This document shows positions 7,983 to 58,568 of a stretch of DNA of 64,000 bases, piece after piece. Source of the stretch: an uncultured Candidatus Saccharibacteria bacterium (GTDB lineage Bacteria > Patescibacteriota > Minisyncoccia > Phycocordibacterales > Phycocordibacteraceae); assembly GCA_964446735.1 (NCBI GenBank), contig CAYUQB010000001.1, forward strand, positions 199,465-263,464. Direction: 5' to 3'. Position numbers and translations under genes: made by a program. The notes beneath the pieces are model-generated. The model was not told the DNA's origin and ran no database searches. It saw nothing but the letters and a program-made list of their open reading frames with translations. Positions within the stretch are counted from its first letter, which is position 1. Every line of letters starts with the position of its first letter.

Positions 7983-8630
7983 ATGAATCCCTTTGAAAAC
8001 ATCATCCTCTACCTGCCCATCCTCGCGGTGCTCGTCATCATCGTGGGCATCGTGCTCTGGCGATCTTCGGATCGCGAGAAGCCGAAGCACTCCGATGAGA
8101 ACGGAGCAGACGAACAAGAGTCGAACCTTGACGCTCCCGCTACGGAGCATCATGCACCGACTCCGCACGTCGCTCCGGCGGCAGCAAGCCACGAACACCA
8201 CGAGGGCGGGGGACATCACTCCCGCATCCTCGAGGCGTTCCTCTGGTTCGCGCTGATCGCAGTGATCTGCGCGGCCGGGATCGGGGGCTGGCGGTGGCTC
8301 AACGCCCCCACCAAGCCCTACCGGGCCACACAGATCGAGGCTCTGGCACAACCAGAGCAGACGATCTGCCCTACGCTCGATGACACCAGTGGGGAAACCT
8401 CCTGCGTCTTCGACAAGGGGTACCGCATTCCCGTGAGCCTGCAAGGCACACAGATCTGCGGCAGCGGCCTCCTGGCCACGCTCCGCTCCTACTACTACGT
8501 GGAGCGCGAGAATGGCCCGGTCCTTGGACCGGTGGCCTGGACCGGCAGCGATGAAGACCGTGGGCGTGATAAGACGTTGCTCATCGGCGAAGGTAGCGGA
8601 AGCGTTACCTATCGCCCCTGCAGCAGCTAA
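7983..8630 (+). CDS. Hypothetical membrane protein with a His-rich acidic linker and a Cys-containing C-terminal domain
   Basis: 215 aa. An AGGAGAG SD lies 5 nt upstream. There are two TM helices and the stretch HHAPTPHVAPAAASHEHHEGGGHH. It is co-directional with the SPFH gene and 9 nt downstream of it. Confidence 0.5.
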   Translation: MNPFENIILYLPILAVLVIIVGIVLWRSSDREKPKHSDENGADEQESNLDAPATEHHAPTPHVAPAAASHEHHEGGGHHSRILEAFLWFALIAVICAAGIGGWRWLNAPTKPYRATQIEALAQPEQTICPTLDDTSGETSCVFDKGYRIPVSLQGTQICGSGLLATLRSYYYVERENGPVLGPVAWTGSDEDRGRDKTLLIGEGSGSVTYRPCSS

Positions 8631-8662: not shown

Positions 8663-8698
8663 GACCCGGACGCTTCGTGCGCCCGGGTCTTTTCTTTA
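8663..8698. terminator. Bidirectional rho-independent terminator
   Basis: gacccggacgc-ttcgt-gcgcccgggtc followed by ttttcttt. It sits between the convergent gene ends at 8630 (+) and 8696 (-). Confidence 0.55.
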
Positions 8699-8962
8699 CT
8701 TAACCGAATCAGGCACGTCTACACCAAACGTACTCGCAAGAATAGCGACAATGGCTTTTGCTCCAAAGATAATGACCAGACCGATGAGACCCCAGATCAT
8801 ATGCTGCTGACCGGTAGTACGCTTTTCTTCGTTTGCTGCTCCCCCAATGAAGTCGACAACGCCCCACACGAAGACGATGAACGCTGCAAGCGCGATAAGG
8901 GTAATGAGCGGATTGATGATGGCAGTTTCTACCTTGCCGAGAAATTCATTGAATGCATTCAT
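8696..8962 (-). CDS. T4SS-pilin-like (VirB2/TrbC-like) small membrane protein, paralog 1
   Basis: 88 aa. It has two hydrophobic helices separated by the short polar loop GGAANEEKRTTGQQ. The architecture is shared with the next four genes. Confidence 0.55.
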   Translation of the reverse strand: MNAFNEFLGKVETAIINPLITLIALAAFIVFVWGVVDFIGGAANEEKRTTGQQHMIWGLIGLVIIFGAKAIVAILASTFGVDVPDSVK

Positions 8963-9026
8963 TGGACTTCATAATAGCAGAACCCGCGTCCAGGGACGCG
9001 GGTTCTGCGTGGAGAGTGGATCGCGA

Positions 9027-9386
9027 TTACCGGCCGCGAGTCGTGTACGGAGCGGTTGGGTACGTTGGGACCGAAGGATTGAGGCTGAAGGTGCCAATGA
9101 GAATGTGGACCAGACCCCAGACAGAGACCATCACAAAGAAGCCAATAAGGCCCCAAAGCATGAGGGACTTGCCTGCTTCACGCTTCTCTTCATCATGTCC
9201 TCCCTGGATGAAGTACTGGAAGATACCCCAGATGAAGACGATGAAGGCGAGTGCGAAGACGATGGGCACTGCCACGTTATTAATAAGGTCGATCACGATA
9301 CGACCTGCATCATTGATGCTGTTGACCTGTGCGAACGCAAGCGCCGGAAGGGCGAGTGCGGCACCGATAAAGCCGAGTTTCTTCAT
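9027..9386 (-). CDS. T4SS-pilin-like (VirB2/TrbC-like) small membrane protein with signal peptide, paralog 2
   Basis: Signal peptide MKKLGFIGAALALPALAFAQ, then PIVFALAFIVFIWGIF..QGGHDEEKREAGKS..LMLWGLIGFFVMVSVWGLV. Confidence 0.6.
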   Translation of the reverse strand: MKKLGFIGAALALPALAFAQVNSINDAGRIVIDLINNVAVPIVFALAFIVFIWGIFQYFIQGGHDEEKREAGKSLMLWGLIGFFVMVSVWGLVHILIGTFSLNPSVPTYPTAPYTTRGR

Positions 9387-9481
9387 GTAATGGATAGATT
9401 ATGTAACCGCGAAGGTTCTTCTATAGGATAGCGCGACGAAAGGGTCAGTCAATCAAGCCTGTACTTTCGTGTGGACAAGGC

Positions 9482-10177
9482 TTATTCGCGACACACGCCC
9501 GTCCCGTCGGCAATGAGATCGCACTTTACTCCCACCGGGCACTGACGATCATCGTAGCAAGGGGTGTACGTCTGACTACCTCCTCCAGAACTGGACGCTG
9601 GTTGTCCCGTCTTCGGATCAATACATTCCGGTGTGCTATTGAAGCCGTAGCTGGCTACATAGACCGTTCCTGGCGGGCAGTTGGCGTCACTTGGTCCTGA
9701 ACCACTGCCTGACCCCGAACCGCTACCCGATCCACTCCCTGACGGCACAAACGTATTGTTGTTATTCGTATTACTTCCCCCCGTCGGTGCTCCGAATATT
9801 GGAAGCGGTGGTCGTGTATCTCGATTGAATCCAAGGGTGCCGACTAAGAGATTGATGATTCCCCAGACTGAGAACATGAGGAAAAATCCGATGAGACCGT
9901 AGAGCACCAACTTCTGACCTTCTTGGCGCTTCTCTTCATTCGTTGCCCCTGCAATGAAGGTGACGAAGACGCCCCAAATGAAGACGATGAAGGCGAGTGC
10001 GAAGACGATGGGCACGACATACCGATCGATGAAGTAGATGATCGTGAGCAAGAAGGTGCCCAACGTGTCTGCGCTTCTGGTATCGGGTTCGGCGGCATAC
10101 GCAAGAGGCGCAAACGTTAGGAAACCAAGAGTAAGGACAACGCTTGCGCGAGCGAAGAATGAAGTAAGTCGGTGCAT
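9482..10177 (-). CDS. T4SS-pilin-like domain fused to a (SG)n linker and a C-terminal 7-Cys module
   Basis: The start was moved to MHRLTSFF, which begins a signal peptide; the track ORF runs to 10213. The pilin hairpin PIVFALAFIVFIWGVF..TNEEKRQEGQK..LVLYGLIGFFLMFSVWGI is followed by SGSGSGSGSGSGSGSG and a Cys-rich tail. Confidence 0.55.
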   Translation of the reverse strand: MHRLTSFFARASVVLTLGFLTFAPLAYAAEPDTRSADTLGTFLLTIIYFIDRYVVPIVFALAFIVFIWGVFVTFIAGATNEEKRQEGQKLVLYGLIGFFLMFSVWGIINLLVGTLGFNRDTRPPLPIFGAPTGGSNTNNNNTFVPSGSGSGSGSGSGSGSGPSDANCPPGTVYVASYGFNSTPECIDPKTGQPASSSGGGSQTYTPCYDDRQCPVGVKCDLIADGTGVCRE

Positions 10178-10213
10178 ATGCCTAAAGCGTAGCAGGCAGT
10201 GGCTAGGCAGCAA

Positions 10214-10525
10214 CTAGCCTACTGGGATAAAGGAGAGGAGGAGCCGAACGATACCCCAGACCCCAAAGAGAACGATCATGCCAATCAAGCTCCAAAGCAC
10301 GAATGCCCTTCCTTTCTGTCGATTCTCCTCACCACCGGTAAAGAAATAGCGAAAGATGCCAAACAGAAAGAACAGGAAGGCGATGATATAGAGGAGAGGA
10401 ATAACTGCCCCATCCACAAACGCGACGATCCCATTGGGTCCATTTACGATCTGTTCGAAGGTCGGAGCAGCGTACGCCGGAAGGGCAATGAGTAACGTGA
10501 GAAATAGGAAAGCGAGACGTATCAT
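10214..10525 (-). CDS. T4SS-pilin-like (VirB2/TrbC-like) small membrane protein with signal peptide, paralog 4
   Basis: Signal peptide MIRLAFLFLTLLIALPAYA, then IPLLYIIAFLFFLFGIF..TGGEENRQKGRA..FVLWSLIGMIVLFGVWGIV. It overlaps the upstream gene by 4 nt (ATGA). Confidence 0.6.
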   Translation of the reverse strand: MIRLAFLFLTLLIALPAYAAPTFEQIVNGPNGIVAFVDGAVIPLLYIIAFLFFLFGIFRYFFTGGEENRQKGRAFVLWSLIGMIVLFGVWGIVRLLLSFIPVG

Positions 10526-11538
10526 AGGGTTTGGACCGTGGCGGCAATAACTTCACTGATCGCTTTAGCACCAAGAAGAATAAGTCCACCGATCACCGTC
10601 CACATAAGCGCGCTGCGCGCGGTCGACACTTTCTCGGGATTACCCTGCGCCGTCACAAAGAGGAATCCGACCCATACCAGCATAAACACGAGGAGAATTG
10701 CACCGAGCTGCACTACCGCATCAAGAATGGCGTTCAAGAGCTCAGGAAGCGAATCGAACTTGAGAGGATTCTGAAGCGTCCCACCTCCTCCACCCTGAGC
10801 ACCACCACTGGTAGCAGGGCCCTTACCTCCGTCCCCCAGGTTCTCATCACCACCCTTGCCACCGCCCCCAAGGCTTTCTGAAAGACCGAGCGCACTGAGT
10901 GTTGAGGAGCATACTGGTGTTGGCAGTGTGTAGGAATAGGTGGTCTTCGTAATCTTCGTACAGGAGGCAATGATCTTTGAGCTGCGGAGTGCCTTGATTT
11001 GCTCGGTGTATCCTGCCACCTTGGCCTTACATGCAGCTTCGGTGTCGTAAAGTTGTGCACCAACGAGGTAACATTCTTTCCCATCCGACTGCTTCTGCCA
11101 TCCTCCCCCCTCCAAGCTGTACTTATTGATCGCAGACGAGGAGAGCGTGCGGGTATAGGTGGCAGTGCCTGATGTGGTTTGAGTTGTCGCCGTACCTGAA
11201 GAAGAAAGCTTGAGTCCGTAGGTGCTGATCGATCCACTACATGCTGGGCCAGGCAATGTATATGTGTAGGAGGTCTTGGTGATTTGCCCACACTTATCTA
11301 TGAGCACGTTTTCCTTGTTGGCCTGTATTTTTGCAAGATACTCAGTACACGCAGTCTGCTCCTTAAATACATTTACGGAGAGGTTGTAGCACTTCGCCTG
11401 CTCGTTTAGGGTGCGGTACTCGACTGCGTACTGGTTCTGGTCCGCAATCTGGACGGTACGGGTGTAGATCTCCGCCTGTGCAGACGAAGGCACGAGCACG
11501 ACTGCTGCGAGAACGAGGAGTAGGGGAAGCGTACGCAT
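10522..11538 (-). CDS. Secreted tandem 4-Cys-module protein fused to a C-terminal T4SS-pilin-like hairpin, paralog 5
   Basis: Signal peptide MRTLPLLLVLAAVVLVPSSAQA. Two roughly 95-aa internal repeats follow (CYNLSV..CTEY..CGQITKTSYTYTLPGPACS and CYLVGA..CKAK..CTKITKTTYSYTLPTPVCS). Then comes a Gly-rich linker and LLVFMLVWVGFLFVTAQGNPEKVSTARSALMWTVIGGLILLGA. Confidence 0.6.
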   Translation of the reverse strand: MRTLPLLLVLAAVVLVPSSAQAEIYTRTVQIADQNQYAVEYRTLNEQAKCYNLSVNVFKEQTACTEYLAKIQANKENVLIDKCGQITKTSYTYTLPGPACSGSISTYGLKLSSSGTATTQTTSGTATYTRTLSSSAINKYSLEGGGWQKQSDGKECYLVGAQLYDTEAACKAKVAGYTEQIKALRSSKIIASCTKITKTTYSYTLPTPVCSSTLSALGLSESLGGGGKGGDENLGDGGKGPATSGGAQGGGGGTLQNPLKFDSLPELLNAILDAVVQLGAILLVFMLVWVGFLFVTAQGNPEKVSTARSALMWTVIGGLILLGAKAISEVIAATVQTL

Positions 11539-11541
11539 GGA

Positions 11542-12843
11542 TTACGGGAGTGCTGCCGAAAGTGATCCGTCAGCGTCGGTGATCGCGTCATGCACGGTCG
11601 CCCGCCCGCCGATGATGCTATGTATCATACCAGCGAAGATACGGTCGGTTACTGCCGGTGCTGGGGAGAGCCAGCCTTTGGCGATGAGTGCCTGAGAATT
11701 CACAATCGGCGCATAGGGATCGTCTGAACGGCTTGCAAGTGCGCTGCGAGCTGCGGGTGCGACACCAATCGCTCGCACGATGAATCCTGCGAGATTCTTC
11801 TCTGCAAGGGCCGCTGCGGTCTGGTATGCGCCCTCTGCGTTGTCACTTGCTTTAGGAATAGCGAACGCGTATACGACCCCGTACCCCACGCGCTCACTTG
11901 CCGTTTCCGGCTGAGGAACTGACGTCATGTCAAAGTCGAGATTTGGGTTTGCTGATGCAATGAGCGAACGCTCGGACGCGAACCCGATATACAGTGCCGA
12001 ATCCCCGGCAATGAAGCTCTGTCGTGCGTCGGTGATGGAACGGTTCCAGGTGTAGACAATTTTCGCGGGGTCAGCGAACTGGGTGTAGAAGCCGATTGCA
12101 GAATCTACCGTCGTGCCCCCAGAAGCGTTCTCGGCACCTTTTGAGAGCGTGGCGCGACTTCCTGACGGCGTATTCTCAACAATGGGATTCCCTGCTTGTA
12201 GGAGAAGCAGCGACACAATGGCACGTGCATTTGGAATATTGTCATAGGTACCAAGCGCAATCGCACTTTTCTCCACCACGCCAAAGGTGATCTTCTCGGT
12301 AAGTGACGGCGTCATACCGACCACTCCCTCCCACGTTTTAGGTGGCTGTGGAATGTTGGCACTGGCTAACCGTGATCGGTTGTAGAACAGTACCAATGGA
12401 TCAACGGCAATCGGTATGCCGTAGGTGCCGGAAGACGTCAGGAATAAGTAGGAGAGTGGGACGTAGGTATCGCGGAACGAACGCTCCGATAGTGTCGAGA
12501 ACGGAATGACCGACAACTTACTACGCTCGGTCACCAAGCGTTCTTGCGTGGTGATGATGAGATCAGGTCCTGCGCCTGATGCAATGGCTTCCGCGAGATC
12601 ACCATCGAAGTTCACCGGATCATGCTCCTGATAGATAAGTGCATTGAATTCCTGGCGCGTACGACGGAGCTCATCAAGTGCTGGCTGCACCGCACTATCC
12701 GGAAGCGTTCCCCAGATCACCACTTCGCCGATTGGTTTTGCTTGGCCGAATCCCTTGAAGAGCGCGAACGCGAGGATGCCCCCTAAGGCAGCGACGCCAA
12801 AGATCGAGATCACGATGATTTGGAACGGGCGCATGGTGGTCAT
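11542..12843 (-). CDS. Extracellular solute-binding protein (ABC transporter substrate-binding, family-1-like) with an N-terminal TM anchor
   Basis: 433 aa. An N-terminal TM helix is followed by a periplasmic-binding-protein-like fold (PDLIITTQERL..., YIGFASERSL). The family assignment is by overall pattern only. Confidence 0.5.
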   Translation of the reverse strand: MTTMRPFQIIVISIFGVAALGGILAFALFKGFGQAKPIGEVVIWGTLPDSAVQPALDELRRTRQEFNALIYQEHDPVNFDGDLAEAIASGAGPDLIITTQERLVTERSKLSVIPFSTLSERSFRDTYVPLSYLFLTSSGTYGIPIAVDPLVLFYNRSRLASANIPQPPKTWEGVVGMTPSLTEKITFGVVEKSAIALGTYDNIPNARAIVSLLLLQAGNPIVENTPSGSRATLSKGAENASGGTTVDSAIGFYTQFADPAKIVYTWNRSITDARQSFIAGDSALYIGFASERSLIASANPNLDFDMTSVPQPETASERVGYGVVYAFAIPKASDNAEGAYQTAAALAEKNLAGFIVRAIGVAPAARSALASRSDDPYAPIVNSQALIAKGWLSPAPAVTDRIFAGMIHSIIGGRATVHDAITDADGSLSAALP

Positions 12844-13370
12844 GGAAGGGTAAAGAGTATTGAGTAATGATGGGGGCCTCCGGCAAATGACTTCATCTTA
12901 TGAAACCCAGCTCCGATAAAAAGCTCCTCGGCCTCACGTTCAGGAACGACGAGTGATTCAGCCGGACCCATACCGCCATGGCTTCCGGTCCAATCGACGA
13001 TGAGCAGCTTACCGCCAGGACGCAGGATACGCTTCGCCTCTTCAACGGCTTCGACTTTGCTTTCAAGTTGAAACAGTACGTTTGCAAGTATAAGTGCATC
13101 GAGAATGTTTTCACGAAGCCGTGTACCACCAGGGCGCTCGAGATCACCCCAGACCGTCTCCACATTTCTAAGTCCCCGTGCATGCGCGGCATCACGAACA
13201 TGCTTCAAGACATCTTCCTGTACATCCATGGCATATACCTGACCGGTCGGTCCAACCACACTTGCGGCTGCGAGTGCGTAGTGGCCGGTACCGCTTCCCA
13301 GGTCTCCCACCTTCATACCGTCAAAGAGTCCCATCTGCAGCACGTTGGCCCACGGATCCGAGAAGTGCAT
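12840..13370 (-). CDS. Class I SAM-dependent methyltransferase
   Basis: Motif I is VGDLGSGTGHYALAAA, motif II is VYAMDV, and LLIVDW follows later. The first ATG at 13397 is also possible; no SD precedes either start. Confidence 0.7.
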   Translation of the reverse strand: MHFSDPWANVLQMGLFDGMKVGDLGSGTGHYALAAASVVGPTGQVYAMDVQEDVLKHVRDAAHARGLRNVETVWGDLERPGGTRLRENILDALILANVLFQLESKVEAVEEAKRILRPGGKLLIVDWTGSHGGMGPAESLVVPEREAEELFIGAGFHKMKSFAGGPHHYSILFTLP

Positions 13371-13480
13371 GTATAAAAAATAGCATGCGAGATGCATGCA
13401 TGAGATTGAATCAACAGAAATAGGAAAGGGCGCGCCTTGTGAGCGCGCCCCGACCGTCTTTGCTGTAGAAGACCCGAGGC

Positions 13481-20750: not shown

Positions 20751-22820
20751 ATGCTTCATTTTCGTGCTTGGTATACTCGCACCACACACATGACTCCTCC
20801 TTCCATTGGACCGGTTCGCCTGTATAGCCAGAGAGAATGGCAGGTGGGGTCGCTACTTTTCACTGGATTCCTTGCGGTCAGTCTCCTGCGCGCATCGATC
20901 ATCCCGACAGATACGTTCCTATTCCCTGCTGCGGCGGTTGCGATGGCCGGTCTCTTCTTTGGCGGTCTTCGGTTGTGGCCGTTTGTGCTTCTTGCGGCAG
21001 GTGCCAGTGCTGCGTTTGAAGGTCTTTCCCTCCCCCTGCTTGCGCTCCTGCCGATTGCGCACACGGTGCAGGCAGTAGCGGGAGCGTATTTCTTGCGATC
21101 AGCTCACGTTGATCCTCTATTCCGCCGCTACCGCGACACGTTTTACTTCATGCTCGTTGCCATATGCGTCGCGACGATCCTCCCTACCCTCGTTGTCACC
21201 AGTGAGTTATTTCTCGGCAGACCATTCTTGCTTGGAACATGGGGCCAGGCATACCTGTCGATGCTCACTTCGCTCCTTATCGTCAGTCCATTTCTTTTAC
21301 GCTGGATCGCAAAACCACGGTTCAGCCGTACCGCCCTGGAATGGGTGGAGCTCGTCTGTGTCTTTGGAGTCCTTATCCTTATTGGTGCTGCCCTTTTTAT
21401 CGTCGACGTTCAAACCATCTTCGGAATTGAGCTCGTGTACTTCCTTGCCATTCCTCTCTTTTGGACGGCGCTCCGACACCGACCACGCTGGGTCAGTCTT
21501 GCCATCTTAGTCACTGCGGTGCTTGCGATAGGAGGTGAGCTGCTGGATCCGGCCGTCGCAACCCTCCCTCAGCGTCTCTATGAGGTTGAAGCATTGCTTA
21601 TTCTCATTGCTCTCTCGTTCTTTACCATTGTCTCGCTTGAGGAGGATCGTCGAGTGAATACAAACCTCATGCGCTCACAGTTGGCGACACTCGAGAATGC
21701 ACTCGCACGCATCACTTCTGAATCGAATGCCAAGAACGACTTCATTGCCATCCTTGCGCATGAACTACGTAATCCCCTTGCACCGATTATGTCCGGTATC
21801 GATCTCATGAAACTCAAGGAAGACCGGGACCCGGATGAGCAAGCAACGCTTGTCATGATGGAAGATCGTATGGACATGATCCGGAGACTTCTTGATGATC
21901 TCCTTGATATCTCGCGGATCTCTGAGGGTAAGATCGCGCTCAAGCGAGAGCTACTCAATCTTGAGGATGTGATACGTCACTCTGTGCTCTCTACGACCCA
22001 TTACTTCAAGGAGCGACACCAAACGTTGGTGTTGAAGTTCCCACCGCGAAAGAAAACCGTACTAGGCGACCCAGTTCGTCTTGAGCAGGTGTTCTCAAAT
22101 CTCCTAACGAACGCTTCGAAATATTCAGACTCCGGAGGCACCGTACACCTCACCATGCAGCGCAGTGGCGACTATGTTGAAGTCATTATTACCGACCAAG
22201 GTATTGGTATTGATCCAGCACACGTTGAAGAGATATTCACGCCCTTTCACCAAGCAGGAGAAGTGGGAAGGACTAAGAAAGGTTTGGGTATCGGCCTTGC
22301 GCTCGTACGCAGTTTTGTCGAGATGCACTACGGCAGCGTGCGCGCCCGGAGCCGCGGTAAGGGACTTGGGAGTGAGTTCATCGTTCGACTCCCGCTTCAT
22401 GAGAGTGTTGAGCACTCTGCTGATGAGGAGCCGCCAGGTGAGGTGGCGGGGCCCGTACGCCGGTCCAGTTTTTCCGTGCTCGTGGTGGATGATAACGATG
22501 CCGCAGCAGCAGGGATTGGACGACTCCTTGAGTTGCGCGGCTGCCACGTCAGGTATGCATACGATGGAGCTCAAGCGATACGCGAAACGATGAACCATAC
22601 TCCTGACGCGGTGCTTCTTGATGTCGGACTTCCCGATCAGGATGGATACGAAGTTGCGCAAACGCTGCGTGCTCGGGGATACTCCGGCCGCCTCATTGCG
22701 CTTACCGGGTTCTCCACTGACGAAGCACGTGAACGTGGAAAAGAAGTTGGGTTCGATCACTATCTCGTGAAGCCCGCAGGACTTGCTGATCTCAGACGGG
22801 TTATCCCGGAATTGGGATAG
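20751..22820 (+). CDS. Hybrid sensor histidine kinase (multi-TM sensor, HisKA, HATPase_c and C-terminal REC)
   Basis: The H-box is FIAILAHELRNPLAPI. The N, G1 and G2 boxes are NLLTNASKYS, DQGIGID and GLGIGLALV. The receiver domain is VLVVDDN...LLDVGLPDQDG...LTGFS...KP. The start may be ATG 20790 instead. Confidence 0.8.
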   Translation: MLHFRAWYTRTTHMTPPSIGPVRLYSQREWQVGSLLFTGFLAVSLLRASIIPTDTFLFPAAAVAMAGLFFGGLRLWPFVLLAAGASAAFEGLSLPLLALLPIAHTVQAVAGAYFLRSAHVDPLFRRYRDTFYFMLVAICVATILPTLVVTSELFLGRPFLLGTWGQAYLSMLTSLLIVSPFLLRWIAKPRFSRTALEWVELVCVFGVLILIGAALFIVDVQTIFGIELVYFLAIPLFWTALRHRPRWVSLAILVTAVLAIGGELLDPAVATLPQRLYEVEALLILIALSFFTIVSLEEDRRVNTNLMRSQLATLENALARITSESNAKNDFIAILAHELRNPLAPIMSGIDLMKLKEDRDPDEQATLVMMEDRMDMIRRLLDDLLDISRISEGKIALKRELLNLEDVIRHSVLSTTHYFKERHQTLVLKFPPRKKTVLGDPVRLEQVFSNLLTNASKYSDSGGTVHLTMQRSGDYVEVIITDQGIGIDPAHVEEIFTPFHQAGEVGRTKKGLGIGLALVRSFVEMHYGSVRARSRGKGLGSEFIVRLPLHESVEHSADEEPPGEVAGPVRRSSFSVLVVDDNDAAAAGIGRLLELRGCHVRYAYDGAQAIRETMNHTPDAVLLDVGLPDQDGYEVAQTLRARGYSGRLIALTGFSTDEARERGKEVGFDHYLVKPAGLADLRRVIPELG

Positions 22821-55705: not shown

Positions 55706-56026
55706 TTGGATACCGGTTCGGTAAGCCGAATTCTGTGCCGCATACGCGGCGGCGACCATCTATCTAAGGCCCGTGGTTGCCCAGGGGCTCAAGCGGCGCT
55801 TCCACTCAAAGGTGGACACGGCCTTGCACCGAGGTAAGGATTTAGCCGTTTCAGTCCGAGATCGCTCTCGGCCCACTCTCAAGGAGAGTATCTATCCTTT
55901 CGGAATCGATCGTTTCTGTTCGCACCTCGCGCCTTTCGGCGGACGGGCGTTACCCGCTACCCTGCTGCAGTCAAAGACTGCCGGTGTTCGGACTTTCCTC
56001 TCGAGAGATCTCGAGCGGTCGCCTGA
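55706..56026 (-). ncRNA. rnpB: RNase P RNA (bacterial type A-like)
   Basis: The minus strand contains GAGAGGAAAGTCCGAACACCGGCAG (P4 5' strand), GGGTAACGCC, AACAGAAAC, GGTGCAAGGCC and GCTTGAGCC...CCTTAGATAGATGG...ACAGAATTCGGCTTACCG (P4 3' strand). The ends pair as P1 (ggaccggttc / gaaccggtatcc). Confidence 0.75.
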
Positions 56027-56060
56027 ACCGGTCCGTGAGCATTATACCACGGATGAATAG

Positions 56061-56585: not shown

Positions 56586-58568
56586 CTATGGAAGTACGGG
56601 AGCAGTAAGTTCCATATCAGGGCACGCAATGCGGTTGATCTTGTAGCTGGTCGTCTTATAGACGTAGCCAGTTGGGGTCTGTGCGGTCGGAAGACCGAAC
56701 GGTACCCACGGGAGAAGTACATCTTCCCAGTACTTGAGCTGGAAGGCGTTCACCGCGAGCGTCGTGACGGTGTCGAAGAGTCCAGAGGTCGAGAGGTTCG
56801 TATCCATCTCATCATTGAGGAATTCTTGGAGTACGGTTACCTGACCCGAATCGTTTACTTGGCTCTCACGCATCCAGCTAGTAATGAGAGGACAGGAGGC
56901 GCCGAGCACTTCTCCGCCGCTACTGCTGCGGGAGCCGCCTCCACCACCACCTCCACCTCCTCCGCCCCCACCTCCGCCAGAGCTGGCAATAGTGGGTTCG
57001 AAGTCGAAGATAGTGGTCATGGTGCTGGTAGCAGTACTCGTTCCGGTAGTGGTTCCAGTGATGTCATTCATGCGCGTAATGCGCAGGTCATCGATCGCTG
57101 CGGATACCGTCGTTGAGCCGTTAGGACTTTGGAGACCCACACCCAAGAGCGGGCTGGTAGTTCCCACCGTCAGATTTGGGAATGCCGTGAGGAGGTTCGT
57201 CCAGCTCCGGAACTGGTTGGTGTTCCCATCAGGCCATTGATTGCCCGAGGTCGCATAGTTCGACCAGGTCCACATGCTGCTTGAGGTTGCGAGCTGCCAG
57301 GTTTGCCAGGTGCCGGTGGCAACGGTTCCTGAATGTTGTGGCATGAAGACCAGCTGACCATTCACCGATCCATTGCCACTAAAGAGCGGAGCGAAGGCGA
57401 TGAACGGAGCGACTACGGAAGTAGTTGCAGTGGTCGTACCGGATACGGTTCCGAAGTCGGAGAGATACGTAGCGAAGGAGAGTTCACTCACGTCAGAGAG
57501 CTCGGTACCGCCGAACTGATAGGTAGCGATAGCGGAGGTGCCGGTCGTGGTTGCTGTAAGTGAGACACTTCCAGAGCCAAGCGGTGCGGTACCCGGACCG
57601 GTCACGAAGGTACCGACTGACGGATCGATGTTCTGCGTTACGCCGTTCCAGAAGAACCACTTATTGGTCGAGCTTGCCTCTGCAAGGGTTGTGGCAAGGT
57701 CTGCTTCACGCACGACAATGGTCTCGGTCACCGGTGTCGTGGTCCCGTTTCCGCCACCACCACCGCCTCCCCCACCTCCTCCATTGGTAGGTGGCATGTT
57801 GTCGGTGAGGCAGTACTCATTTACTACCAGCACATACTTATTCGTCGTGAGGTTAGTGAAGGAAGGAGCACTCACGGTGAGCGTTGCTGTCTCAGCTCCC
57901 GCGAGGGTATCACCCGCTCGATATCCTACGGTGCGATAGTGGCCGGCAACGCAGGCACTACCGTTTGCAATCACTGCATCGGTTGACGACGCTGCGGGCG
58001 CATTCACTTCATGTGCGGTGTAGGAAGCGCCCGAGGCCATAAGCGATGTGCTCACCTGTGCGGTACCGAGAGTGAAGGTGCCGGTTGTGGTCGTACCGCC
58101 ATTAAGATTGGCTGCGGTCCATGTTGCTTCCATGGGGAAGAAGCGGAACGTGGTGGTTGCATCCGCGAATGACTGAGTCGTCGATGCATCCTGAATGTAT
58201 TTGACGAGATGCACCTGCACGAATGCAGGTGTGGTGGTCCCCCCACCTCCCCCACCACCATTTGTCGGACAGGTTGTGGTTGCAGTTGGATTCGTGGTTG
58301 TGCCCGTGGGGAGGGTCGGACAGGTTGGCTCCGTCGGAGCAGTTGGTTCTGCTGGAGACGTGGGTGAGGTCGGTTCGGTGGGTGCAGTCGGAGCAGTTGG
58401 TTCCGTCGGAGGAGTCGGGCTAACAACGATTGGGGGCGTAGTCGTGCTCGTCTGTGCGATGACGGCCTGCGGCATGCCTGACGTTATGAACGTCAGTGCA
58501 AGCAGCGCCACAAAAACACTGCCCGCCCCCTGCAGCGTCTTCGGGCGCAATCTGATTTTCTTCAACAT
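56586..58568 (-). CDS. Large secreted low-complexity surface protein (Pro/Thr repeats, poly-Gly tracts)
   Basis: The signal peptide is followed by PTEPTAPTAPTEPTSPTSPAEPTAPTEPT repeats. There are several G7-G15 runs and T/S/G-rich β-rich regions. Confidence 0.55.
   Translation of the reverse strand: MLKKIRLRPKTLQGAGSVFVALLALTFITSGMPQAVIAQTSTTTPPIVVSPTPPTEPTAPTAPTEPTSPTSPAEPTAPTEPTCPTLPTGTTTNPTATTTCPTNGGGGGGGTTTPAFVQVHLVKYIQDASTTQSFADATTTFRFFPMEATWTAANLNGGTTTTGTFTLGTAQVSTSLMASGASYTAHEVNAPAASSTDAVIANGSACVAGHYRTVGYRAGDTLAGAETATLTVSAPSFTNLTTNKYVLVVNEYCLTDNMPPTNGGGGGGGGGGGNGTTTPVTETIVVREADLATTLAEASSTNKWFFWNGVTQNIDPSVGTFVTGPGTAPLGSGSVSLTATTTGTSAIATYQFGGTELSDVSELSFATYLSDFGTVSGTTTATTSVVAPFIAFAPLFSGNGSVNGQLVFMPQHSGTVATGTWQTWQLATSSSMWTWSNYATSGNQWPDGNTNQFRSWTNLLTAFPNLTVGTTSPLLGVGLQSPNGSTTVSAAIDDLRITRMNDITGTTTGTSTATSTMTTIFDFEPTIASSGGGGGGGGGGGGGGGSRSSSGGEVLGASCPLITSWMRESQVNDSGQVTVLQEFLNDEMDTNLSTSGLFDTVTTLAVNAFQLKYWEDVLLPWVPFGLPTAQTPTGYVYKTTSYKINRIACPDMELTAPVLP
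58313..58436 (-). repeat. Tandem imperfect PT(E/A/S)P-coding repeats inside the surface-protein gene
   Basis: gtcggagcagttggttc recurs at about 58333 and 58393. It encodes a PTxPT periodicity. Confidence 0.5.

Follow-up and report, generated by a model that had tools for sequence, protein, structure and literature searches.

The ultra-small, host-dependent Patescibacteria, which live on other cells, account for much of bacterial diversity, and how they take resources from their hosts is an open question. Their type IV secretion system (T4SS) and its pilin array belong to the small number of systems with a demonstrated essential role in this way of life, the demonstration coming from one cultivated Saccharibacterium. 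In Southlakia epibionticum ML1 (S. epibionticum), the T4SS cluster contains an array of predicted pilin genes without which the bacterium cannot grow on its host (Wang et al., 2023, Cell, PMC10633639; PMC12857230). A survey with the same Pfam models as those used here recorded 441 arrays of 2–11 VirB2-like genes in 383 assemblies, the members of which share a mean identity of 25% and a maximum of 54% (Quinonero-Coronel et al., 2025, PMC12102498). A 2025 review singles out the Patescibacteria arrays as the sole exception to the rule that T4SSs of the Gram-positive type lack VirB2, and puts forward, as a speculation, a pilus that serves as a conduit for signals or uptake (PMC12857230). Here we describe an array of five such genes in a 64,000-nucleotide stretch of a Patescibacteria chromosome (contig CAYUQB010000001.1 of NCBI assembly GCA_964446735.1, positions 199,465 to 263,464 of the forward strand), hereafter the window. 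This kind of array is already published and offers no new principle (PMC10633639, PMC12102498, PMC12857230). What may be new, modestly and for this clade, is a stand-alone array beside gyrA, its invariable coupling to a gene for a solute-binding-like protein, and its apparent make-up of one conserved major subunit and domain-bearing minor subunits.

The array consists of five consecutive open reading frames (ORFs) on the minus strand, at 8696–11538, which in order of transcription encode proteins of 338, 103, 231, 119 and 88 amino acids (pilins 1–5). An original prediction, made from the letters of the window, had placed five co-directional T4SS pilin genes here, and all five ORFs are present at its coordinates. 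Pilin 1 (10522–11538) comprises a signal peptide, two repeats of ~90 residues, a Gly-rich linker and a C-terminal PF18895 hairpin (residues ~262–331). Pilin 2 (10214–10525) is made up of a signal peptide and a hairpin. Pilin 3 (9482–10177) has a signal peptide, a hairpin, a Gly/Ser/Asn-rich linker and a C-terminal domain with six cysteines, and pilin 4 (9027–9386) has a signal peptide, a hairpin and a Pro-rich tail. Pilin 5 (8696–8962) is a hairpin alone, with no signal peptide. Four nucleotides are shared by the end of pilin 1 and the start of pilin 2, and the gaps between the other genes measure 36 nucleotides (pilins 2–3), 95 nucleotides (pilins 3–4, the largest) and 64 nucleotides (pilins 4–5). 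The longest ORF of pilin 3 opens with a TTG at 10213 and would encode 243 residues; the ATG at 10177, which gives 231 residues, was taken as the start on the model of the orthologues in two related genomes described below (L002 and L004). Several plus-strand ORFs also cover the pilin genes, among them 8847–9431 (194 residues, the longest) and 8953–9390. They are antisense artefacts of a sequence with 55% GC, and they set an annotation trap, in that longest-ORF gene calling selects the 194-residue ORF in place of pilins 4 and 5.

All five pilins belong to the PF18895 (T4SS_pilin) family. Their scores exceed the gathering cut-off of 26.6 bits in every case: 47.3 bits for pilin 1 (E = 2.1e-12), 30.4 for pilin 2 (E = 4.3e-7), 36.4 for pilin 3 (E = 5.7e-9), 45.5 for pilin 4 (E = 8.3e-12) and 32.4 for pilin 5 (E = 9.8e-8). 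The matches extend from about positions 3–15 to positions 70–71 of the 71-position model. Since all five score above this cut-off and the array recurs in nearly all complete related loci, it is far beyond chance. The T4SS-pilin identity that had been proposed is thus upheld by PF18895, and PF04956 (TrbC/VirB2) gives weaker signals. Four of the five pilins match PF04956 over the same region (13.6–19.2 bits, E 0.0014–0.08; E = 0.0041 for pilin 5), the remaining one has no match to it, and none reaches its cut-off of 27.9 bits. Among NCBIfam models, NF045849, a pilin-like conjugal transfer protein of mycoplasma integrative and conjugative elements, is the best for all five (23.0–36.0 bits, E 4e-9 to 5e-5; E = 1.2e-6 for pilin 5), and its 40-bit cut-off is likewise reached by none.

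A common core of ~75 residues can be aligned across the five proteins. It contains a hydrophobic helix, a loop of the form G-G-x-x-E-E-K-R-x-x-G-K/Q and a second hydrophobic helix with W-G-L-I-G. The helix 1 motif is PIVFALAFIVFIWGIF in pilin 4 and near-identical in pilin 3, the second-helix motif is LWGLIGFFVMVSVWG, and the loop is also present as the GG/TN-EEKR-x-G-K/Q pattern by which it had been described. The shared architecture and motifs on which the original prediction was built are therefore found in the sequences, and both hydropathy and structure prediction agree with a hairpin. Two hydrophobic stretches around a charged loop were seen in all five pilins. By simple hydropathy and the -3/-1 rule, pilins 1–4 carry N-terminal hydrophobic leaders that end in AQA, AYA, AYA and AFA, respectively (predicted ends after AQA22 in pilin 1 and AYA19 in pilin 2), and pilin 5 has none; most members, four of five, thus have a signal peptide, as had been suggested. 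AlphaFold2 (AF2) modelled pilin 4 from a 49-sequence alignment as a leader helix followed by antiparallel helices at residues 24–61 and 66–99, with a mean predicted local distance difference test score (pLDDT) of 80.4 and 85–92 in the core. Single-sequence AF2 of pilin 1 gave long helices at residues 261–297 and 301–337 (pLDDT 74–85) and left the N-terminal repeat domain unmodelled (pLDDT about 30).

To place the array among its relatives, one genome per species was scanned with a closely related subset of a 13-sequence pilin alignment, which yielded 80 loci (labelled L...) from Paceibacteria, Kaiserbacteria, Parcubacteria and mislabelled records. In nearly every complete locus, 5–7 co-directional pilin genes were found at the same place with a hidden Markov model of the hairpin. 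Throughout this clade of Paceibacteria, the array forms a stable module of 5–7 genes. In the window, the gene directly upstream of pilin 1 (11542–12843, minus strand) encodes an orphan solute-binding-like protein of 433 residues with an N-terminal membrane anchor (SBP_bac_1, 66.8 bits; SBP_bac_8, 54.6 bits), and its stop lies 3 nucleotides before the pilin 1 start. In all 80 loci with enough DNA, this gene runs in the same direction as the first pilin gene and immediately precedes it, at a gap of mostly -4 to +10 nucleotides. A methyltransferase gene is present in 75 of the related loci and gyrA in 63. Two long contigs have the same gene order as the window: S1, lactamase_B, GyrA, methyltransferase, binding protein, five pilins, a gene of unknown function, Band_7, Alr, IF-2 and ClpB.

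The wider family is large. A profile of the five window pilins matches 14,793 representatives of 50%-identity clusters at E ≤ 0.001. Pilin 4 has 834 homologues; the best 120 of these 834 are 63–91% identical to it, and those among the 120 that carry an organism name are nearly all from Patescibacteria, Paceibacterota or Parcubacteria, several of them already called “pilin” at NCBI. Homologues from these groups and from Kaiserbacteria agree with the suggestion that the DNA came from a bacterium of the Candidate Phyla Radiation. The public record titles of L005, L008, L013, L014 and others read “uncultured Candidatus Saccharibacteria bacterium” or “Bacillota bacterium” despite a Paceibacteria-type locus, and JGI names pilin 4 orthologues “NADH:ubiquinone oxidoreductase subunit 2 (subunit N)”. 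These titles and names are probably mislabels, the JGI name probably because of a spurious transmembrane similarity to NuoM.

The window array falls within the published definition of a Patescibacteria array, that is, at least two PF18895/VirB2-like genes in tandem or one gene apart in a Patescibacteria genome. It resembles the arrays of the survey in its PF18895 membership, its tandem, co-directional paralogues of low identity, its phylum and its Sec-type leaders. Its members are 30–40% identical to the 88-residue pilin, compared with the published array mean of 25% and maximum of 54%. It differs in belonging to the Paceibacteria, whereas the published arrays are most abundant in Microgenomatia and Saccharimonadia, and in lying outside any T4SS cluster (there is no virB4 in the window), whereas the S. 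epibionticum array lies inside one. A further difference is its fixed position behind the orphan solute-binding-like gene next to gyrA, a linkage of which we found no mention in the survey (PMC12102498).

Three other systems invite comparison. Canonical VirB2/TrbC/TraA proteins, such as VirB2 of Agrobacterium, are likewise small proteins with a long leader, two hydrophobic helices and a short charged loop, and the weak TrbC matches point the same way. Unlike them, the window pilins belong to a monoderm host, some carry large extra domains, and both PF04956 and profile-profile matches are sub-significant. In addition, virB2 lies between virB1 and virB3 in seven of seven plasmid loci, whereas the window array has no adjoining VirB1, VirB3 or VirB4. 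A link between PF18895 and VirB2 is suggested by weak sequence similarity, common architecture and the literature. The Mbov_0395/MMCAP2_0565 family (NF045849) is a hairpin protein associated with monoderm T4SSs, and the matches of the window pilins span almost the whole of its 80-residue model; it is, however, encoded by a single gene in a mobile element rather than by a chromosomal array, and the scores are sub-threshold. Finally, the tandem virB2 genes of Bartonella and Anaplasma also comprise several divergent pilin paralogues in a row and have been discussed as an adaptation to host surfaces (PMC12102498). Those bacteria are diderm animal pathogens for which antigenic variation has been proposed as the driver, whereas in the present array the core of each pilin is conserved in its own orthologue among close relatives.

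This conservation is clear in L002 and L004, two syntenic genomes in which each window pilin best matches the gene at the same position. Identities to the L002 and L004 orthologues are 62% and 56% for pilin 1 (hairpin part only), 63% and 54% for pilin 2, 49% and 43% for pilin 3, 84% and 67% for pilin 4, and 75% and 54% for pilin 5, compared with 85% and 82% for GyrA and 56% and 52% for the binding protein. Over 82 loci the median identity is highest for pilin 4, at 62%. By a simple best-hit test, five distinct and collinear orthologues were recovered in just 28 of 81 loci, and one-to-one positional orthology appears to be limited to close relatives. The original prediction had described the paralogues as strongly diversified outside the hairpin. 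That holds for the N-terminal extension of pilin 1 and the C-terminal extension of pilin 3, to which the highly variable parts are limited, but the hairpin cores are not fast-varying, as the values for pilin 4 illustrate. Pilins 3 and 4 also share 12 identical codons (VPIVFALAFIVF; 38 of 39 nucleotides, at 9226–9264 and 9972–10010), and a similar shared codon run occurs in the second helix in L004. The run may be a short gene-conversion tract between the two genes; codon-level constraint is the alternative, part of the run being identical across genomes as well.

Three features make pilin 4 the probable major subunit: it is better conserved than the other four, a promoter of its own may precede it, and a conserved, covarying stem-loop lies behind it. 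The promoter-like site, TTGACT-16-TATCCT (9425–9452, minus strand), lies in the 95-nucleotide gap upstream of pilin 4 and was identified by a consensus scan with 9 of 12 matches; it is a weak candidate, such sites being no commoner in the region than in shuffled sequences. The stem-loop, GC-rich and 14 bp long (8977–9008, minus strand), directly follows the pilin 4 stop, with a minimum free energy (MFE) of -29.3 kcal/mol (z = -5.3). Its position is kept in most related loci, where the 75 nucleotides after the stop have a median MFE of -24.9, and it occurs at the same place in L002, L004–L009, L011, L013, L015, L016, L018–L021 and L028–L031. Compensatory changes occur at 10 of its 11 pairs across 19 aligned sequences. 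A TCTCCAC-like motif precedes the stem-loop. Behind it, the window has the extended -10-like sequence TGCTATTAT, roughly 10–15 nucleotides short of the start codon of pilin 5, and across loci a conserved extended -10-like TGCTATNAT is found after the stem-loop and just ahead of pilin 5. The stem-loop may act as a terminator or attenuator, coupled to a promoter for a short-leader pilin 5 mRNA, and together with the promoter-like site it suggests differential expression of the major subunit. A second stem-loop (8663–8689, minus strand) follows the pilin 5 stop, in the interval before the convergent downstream gene, which ends at 8630; the 65-nucleotide fold has an MFE of -28.1 kcal/mol (z = -3.2), and it likely marks the end of the operon. 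A search of Rfam gave no match in the array region.

Two of the pilins, 1 and 3, carry extensions. Pilin 1 has ~240 extra residues between its leader and hairpin, in the form of two ~90-residue repeats with four cysteines each, which are 33% identical (E 2e-16), followed by the Gly-rich linker. The repeat region (residues 23–317; 10587–11472, minus strand) has no Pfam match. Among the related loci the repeat recurs in the position-1 pilins of just two, L042 and L026, and in a large protein database it had two matches, namely pilin 1 itself and one JGI protein (P0122). The relatives show the same pattern of extension, with position-1 pilins bearing N-terminal extensions of up to about 580 residues and a mid-array pilin bearing C-terminal extensions of up to about 290 residues, and no Pfam domain was matched in any of them. 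All the cysteines of the five window pilins sit in the extensions, N-terminal in pilin 1 and C-terminal in pilin 3. Both termini of VirB2 and TraA lie outside the membrane, and the same topology would put the extensions on the outer side, where disulfides could form within them. Phase-variation repeats were sought in the array and none was found, the tandem-repeat matches being codon periodicity in the helix-1 region.

We consider it probable, with appreciable room for doubt, that the array encodes Sec-inserted, VirB2-like hairpin subunits which a distant VirB4-type T4SS assembles into a filament or conduit in contact with the host. Like the propilins of VirB2 and TraA, the pilins would insert into the cytoplasmic membrane with their two termini on the outer side and the conserved EEKR loop on the inner side, and signal peptidase I would cut the leaders. 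The hairpins would then be drawn from the membrane and assembled by a monoderm-type, VirB4-driven T4SS encoded elsewhere in the genome; we take such VirB4-type systems to be present in nearly all Patescibacteria and often to lie close to dnaA. Assembly would yield a filament or conduit touching the host cell, with pilin 4 as the major subunit and the other four as minor subunits. Pilins 1 and 3 would display their variable, disulfide-bonded domains outside the filament, where recognition of the host surface is expected. The locus thereby offers candidates for the major subunit, for host-recognition domains and for a partner protein, all of them concrete targets.

The distance from virB4 bears directly on this proposal. 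As the original prediction had noted, the window is without T4SS machinery: no VirB4, VirB6, VirD4 or relaxase was seen in the 64 kb, with the larger ORFs identified as housekeeping or unrelated genes by Pfam and syntenic gene tables and the remaining ORFs judged by eye. Within 10 kb of the array, no VirB4-like ORF (at least 450 residues, Walker A, T4SS-like) was detected in the 80 related loci, and the sole Walker-A ORF near the array, in L079, had no Pfam match. Four genomes with an orthologous array (L019, L045, L054 and L072) are nonetheless VirB4-positive in Table S1 of the survey, these carriers being Parcubacteria bacterium C7867-001, C7867-007, C7867-008 and GW2011_GWA1_56_13 (PMC12102498). 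The same survey reported VirB4 in 2,417 of 3,035 Patescibacteria assemblies and VirB2-like proteins in 1,948 of the VirB4-positive ones, with a pilin gene near virB4 in just 1,135 (PMC12102498). Because nearness was recorded in only 1,135 of 1,948 assemblies, VirB2-like genes distant from virB4 are common, and nearness to virB4 is a frequent rather than a defining trait of Patescibacteria pilin arrays.

Several observations weigh against a T4SS-assembled filament. The array never adjoins virB4 in this clade, and we know of no pilus seen in any Patescibacteria. Structural and profile searches did not connect the hairpin to known pilins: Foldseek of the pilin 4 model against the PDB returned nothing at E ≤ 0.001, its top matches being unrelated helical membrane proteins, and the hairpin profile gave just spurious transmembrane matches (NuoM, TRPC6) against PDB sequences. 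Comparison by hhalign with seven plasmid VirB2/TrbC proteins yielded non-significant probabilities of 4.6% and 2.3%, with aligned segments that correspond topologically. For both Foldseek and hhalign, a two-helix hairpin is too simple to discriminate. Furthermore, three single polypeptides, P0274 (606 residues), P0308 (555 residues) and P0244 (302 residues), contain seven, six and three tandem PF18895-like hairpins, respectively. They are in effect an array fused into one polypeptide, and, unless processed, they are easier to reconcile with a fixed membrane hetero-oligomer than with a filament of free subunits.

These fusions lead to the best-surviving rival, in which the hairpin proteins stay in the membrane as subunits of the T4SS translocon or of a short wall stalk, with the five paralogues in an ordered hetero-oligomer and no extended pilus. 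Besides the fused polypeptides, it accommodates the retention of a separate orthologue at each array position in close relatives and the stable gene number of 5–7, and Gram-positive T4SSs generally have no pili (PMC10633639, PMC12102498). The family is, however, closer to the pilus-forming VirB2/TrbC proteins than to any channel subunit, and the large outward-facing extensions of pilins 1 and 3 suggest surface display. We regard a purely membrane-resident oligomer as unlikely, if still a serious contender.

The strict linkage to the solute-binding-like gene, translationally coupled in all 80 loci, suggests a different kind of rival, namely a stand-alone envelope module, independent of any T4SS, in which the binding protein and five hairpins (ten membrane helices) serve uptake or sensing. 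Such a module would suit the lack of T4SS genes within 10 kb of the array in all loci, and the lack of an ABC permease for the binding protein among the genes of the 64-kb window. Yet an ABC ATPase was not seen in the window either and no ATPase or other energising component is linked, the same family is elsewhere in Patescibacteria part of T4SS clusters and essential along with them, and the linkage could mean co-expression only. On balance this explanation seems to us improbable. A combination of ideas is that in this large Paceibacteria clade the array and the binding protein have become a separate module whose filament or conduit captures and imports host-derived molecules, which would make it a T4SS-derived device for uptake rather than secretion, with the paralogues and the fusions of 3–7 hairpins as an ordered hetero-oligomeric repeat rather than interchangeable variants; we offer it as a long shot. 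Unrelated small membrane proteins such as phage holins, which the original prediction had itself named as the alternative, or chance ORFs would share the two-helix architecture in general and a Phage_holin_3_6 match at E = 0.78, but they are rejected as very improbable given that no PHROG family matched at E ≤ 0.01, no phage genes lie around the array, housekeeping synteny is conserved, and the pilin profile and PF18895 matches are as reported above.

The DNA around the array is chromosomal. Upstream of the solute-binding-like gene, and overlapping its start by 4 nucleotides, is a gene for an S-adenosylmethionine-dependent methyltransferase of 185 residues (12840–13397, minus strand); the identical gene in L001 gives Methyltransf_11/25/31 matches, and it is probably in the same operon as the array. 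The window further encodes ClpB, a cysteine desulfurase-type aminotransferase, IF-2, alanine racemase, GyrA, S1, a hybrid histidine kinase, FtsA, FtsZ, TsaD, ValRS, LepA, MurJ, HtpX, LemA and GroES/EL, some of them recognised by eye, together with eleven tRNAs and the RNase P RNA.

Three features away from the array deserve mention. The bacterial RNase P RNA is of class A (55706–56034, minus strand; 118.5 bits), and a 95-residue plus-strand ORF that overlaps it (55773–56060) is spurious. The hybrid histidine kinase (20751–22820, plus strand) combines a MASE1 membrane sensor with HisKA, HATPase_c and receiver domains in a very small genome, and was found in only one related locus. A secreted protein of 660 residues (56586–58568, minus strand), which has no Pfam match, contains Pro/Thr-rich repeats and several poly-Gly runs of up to about 16 residues, and could be a surface protein.

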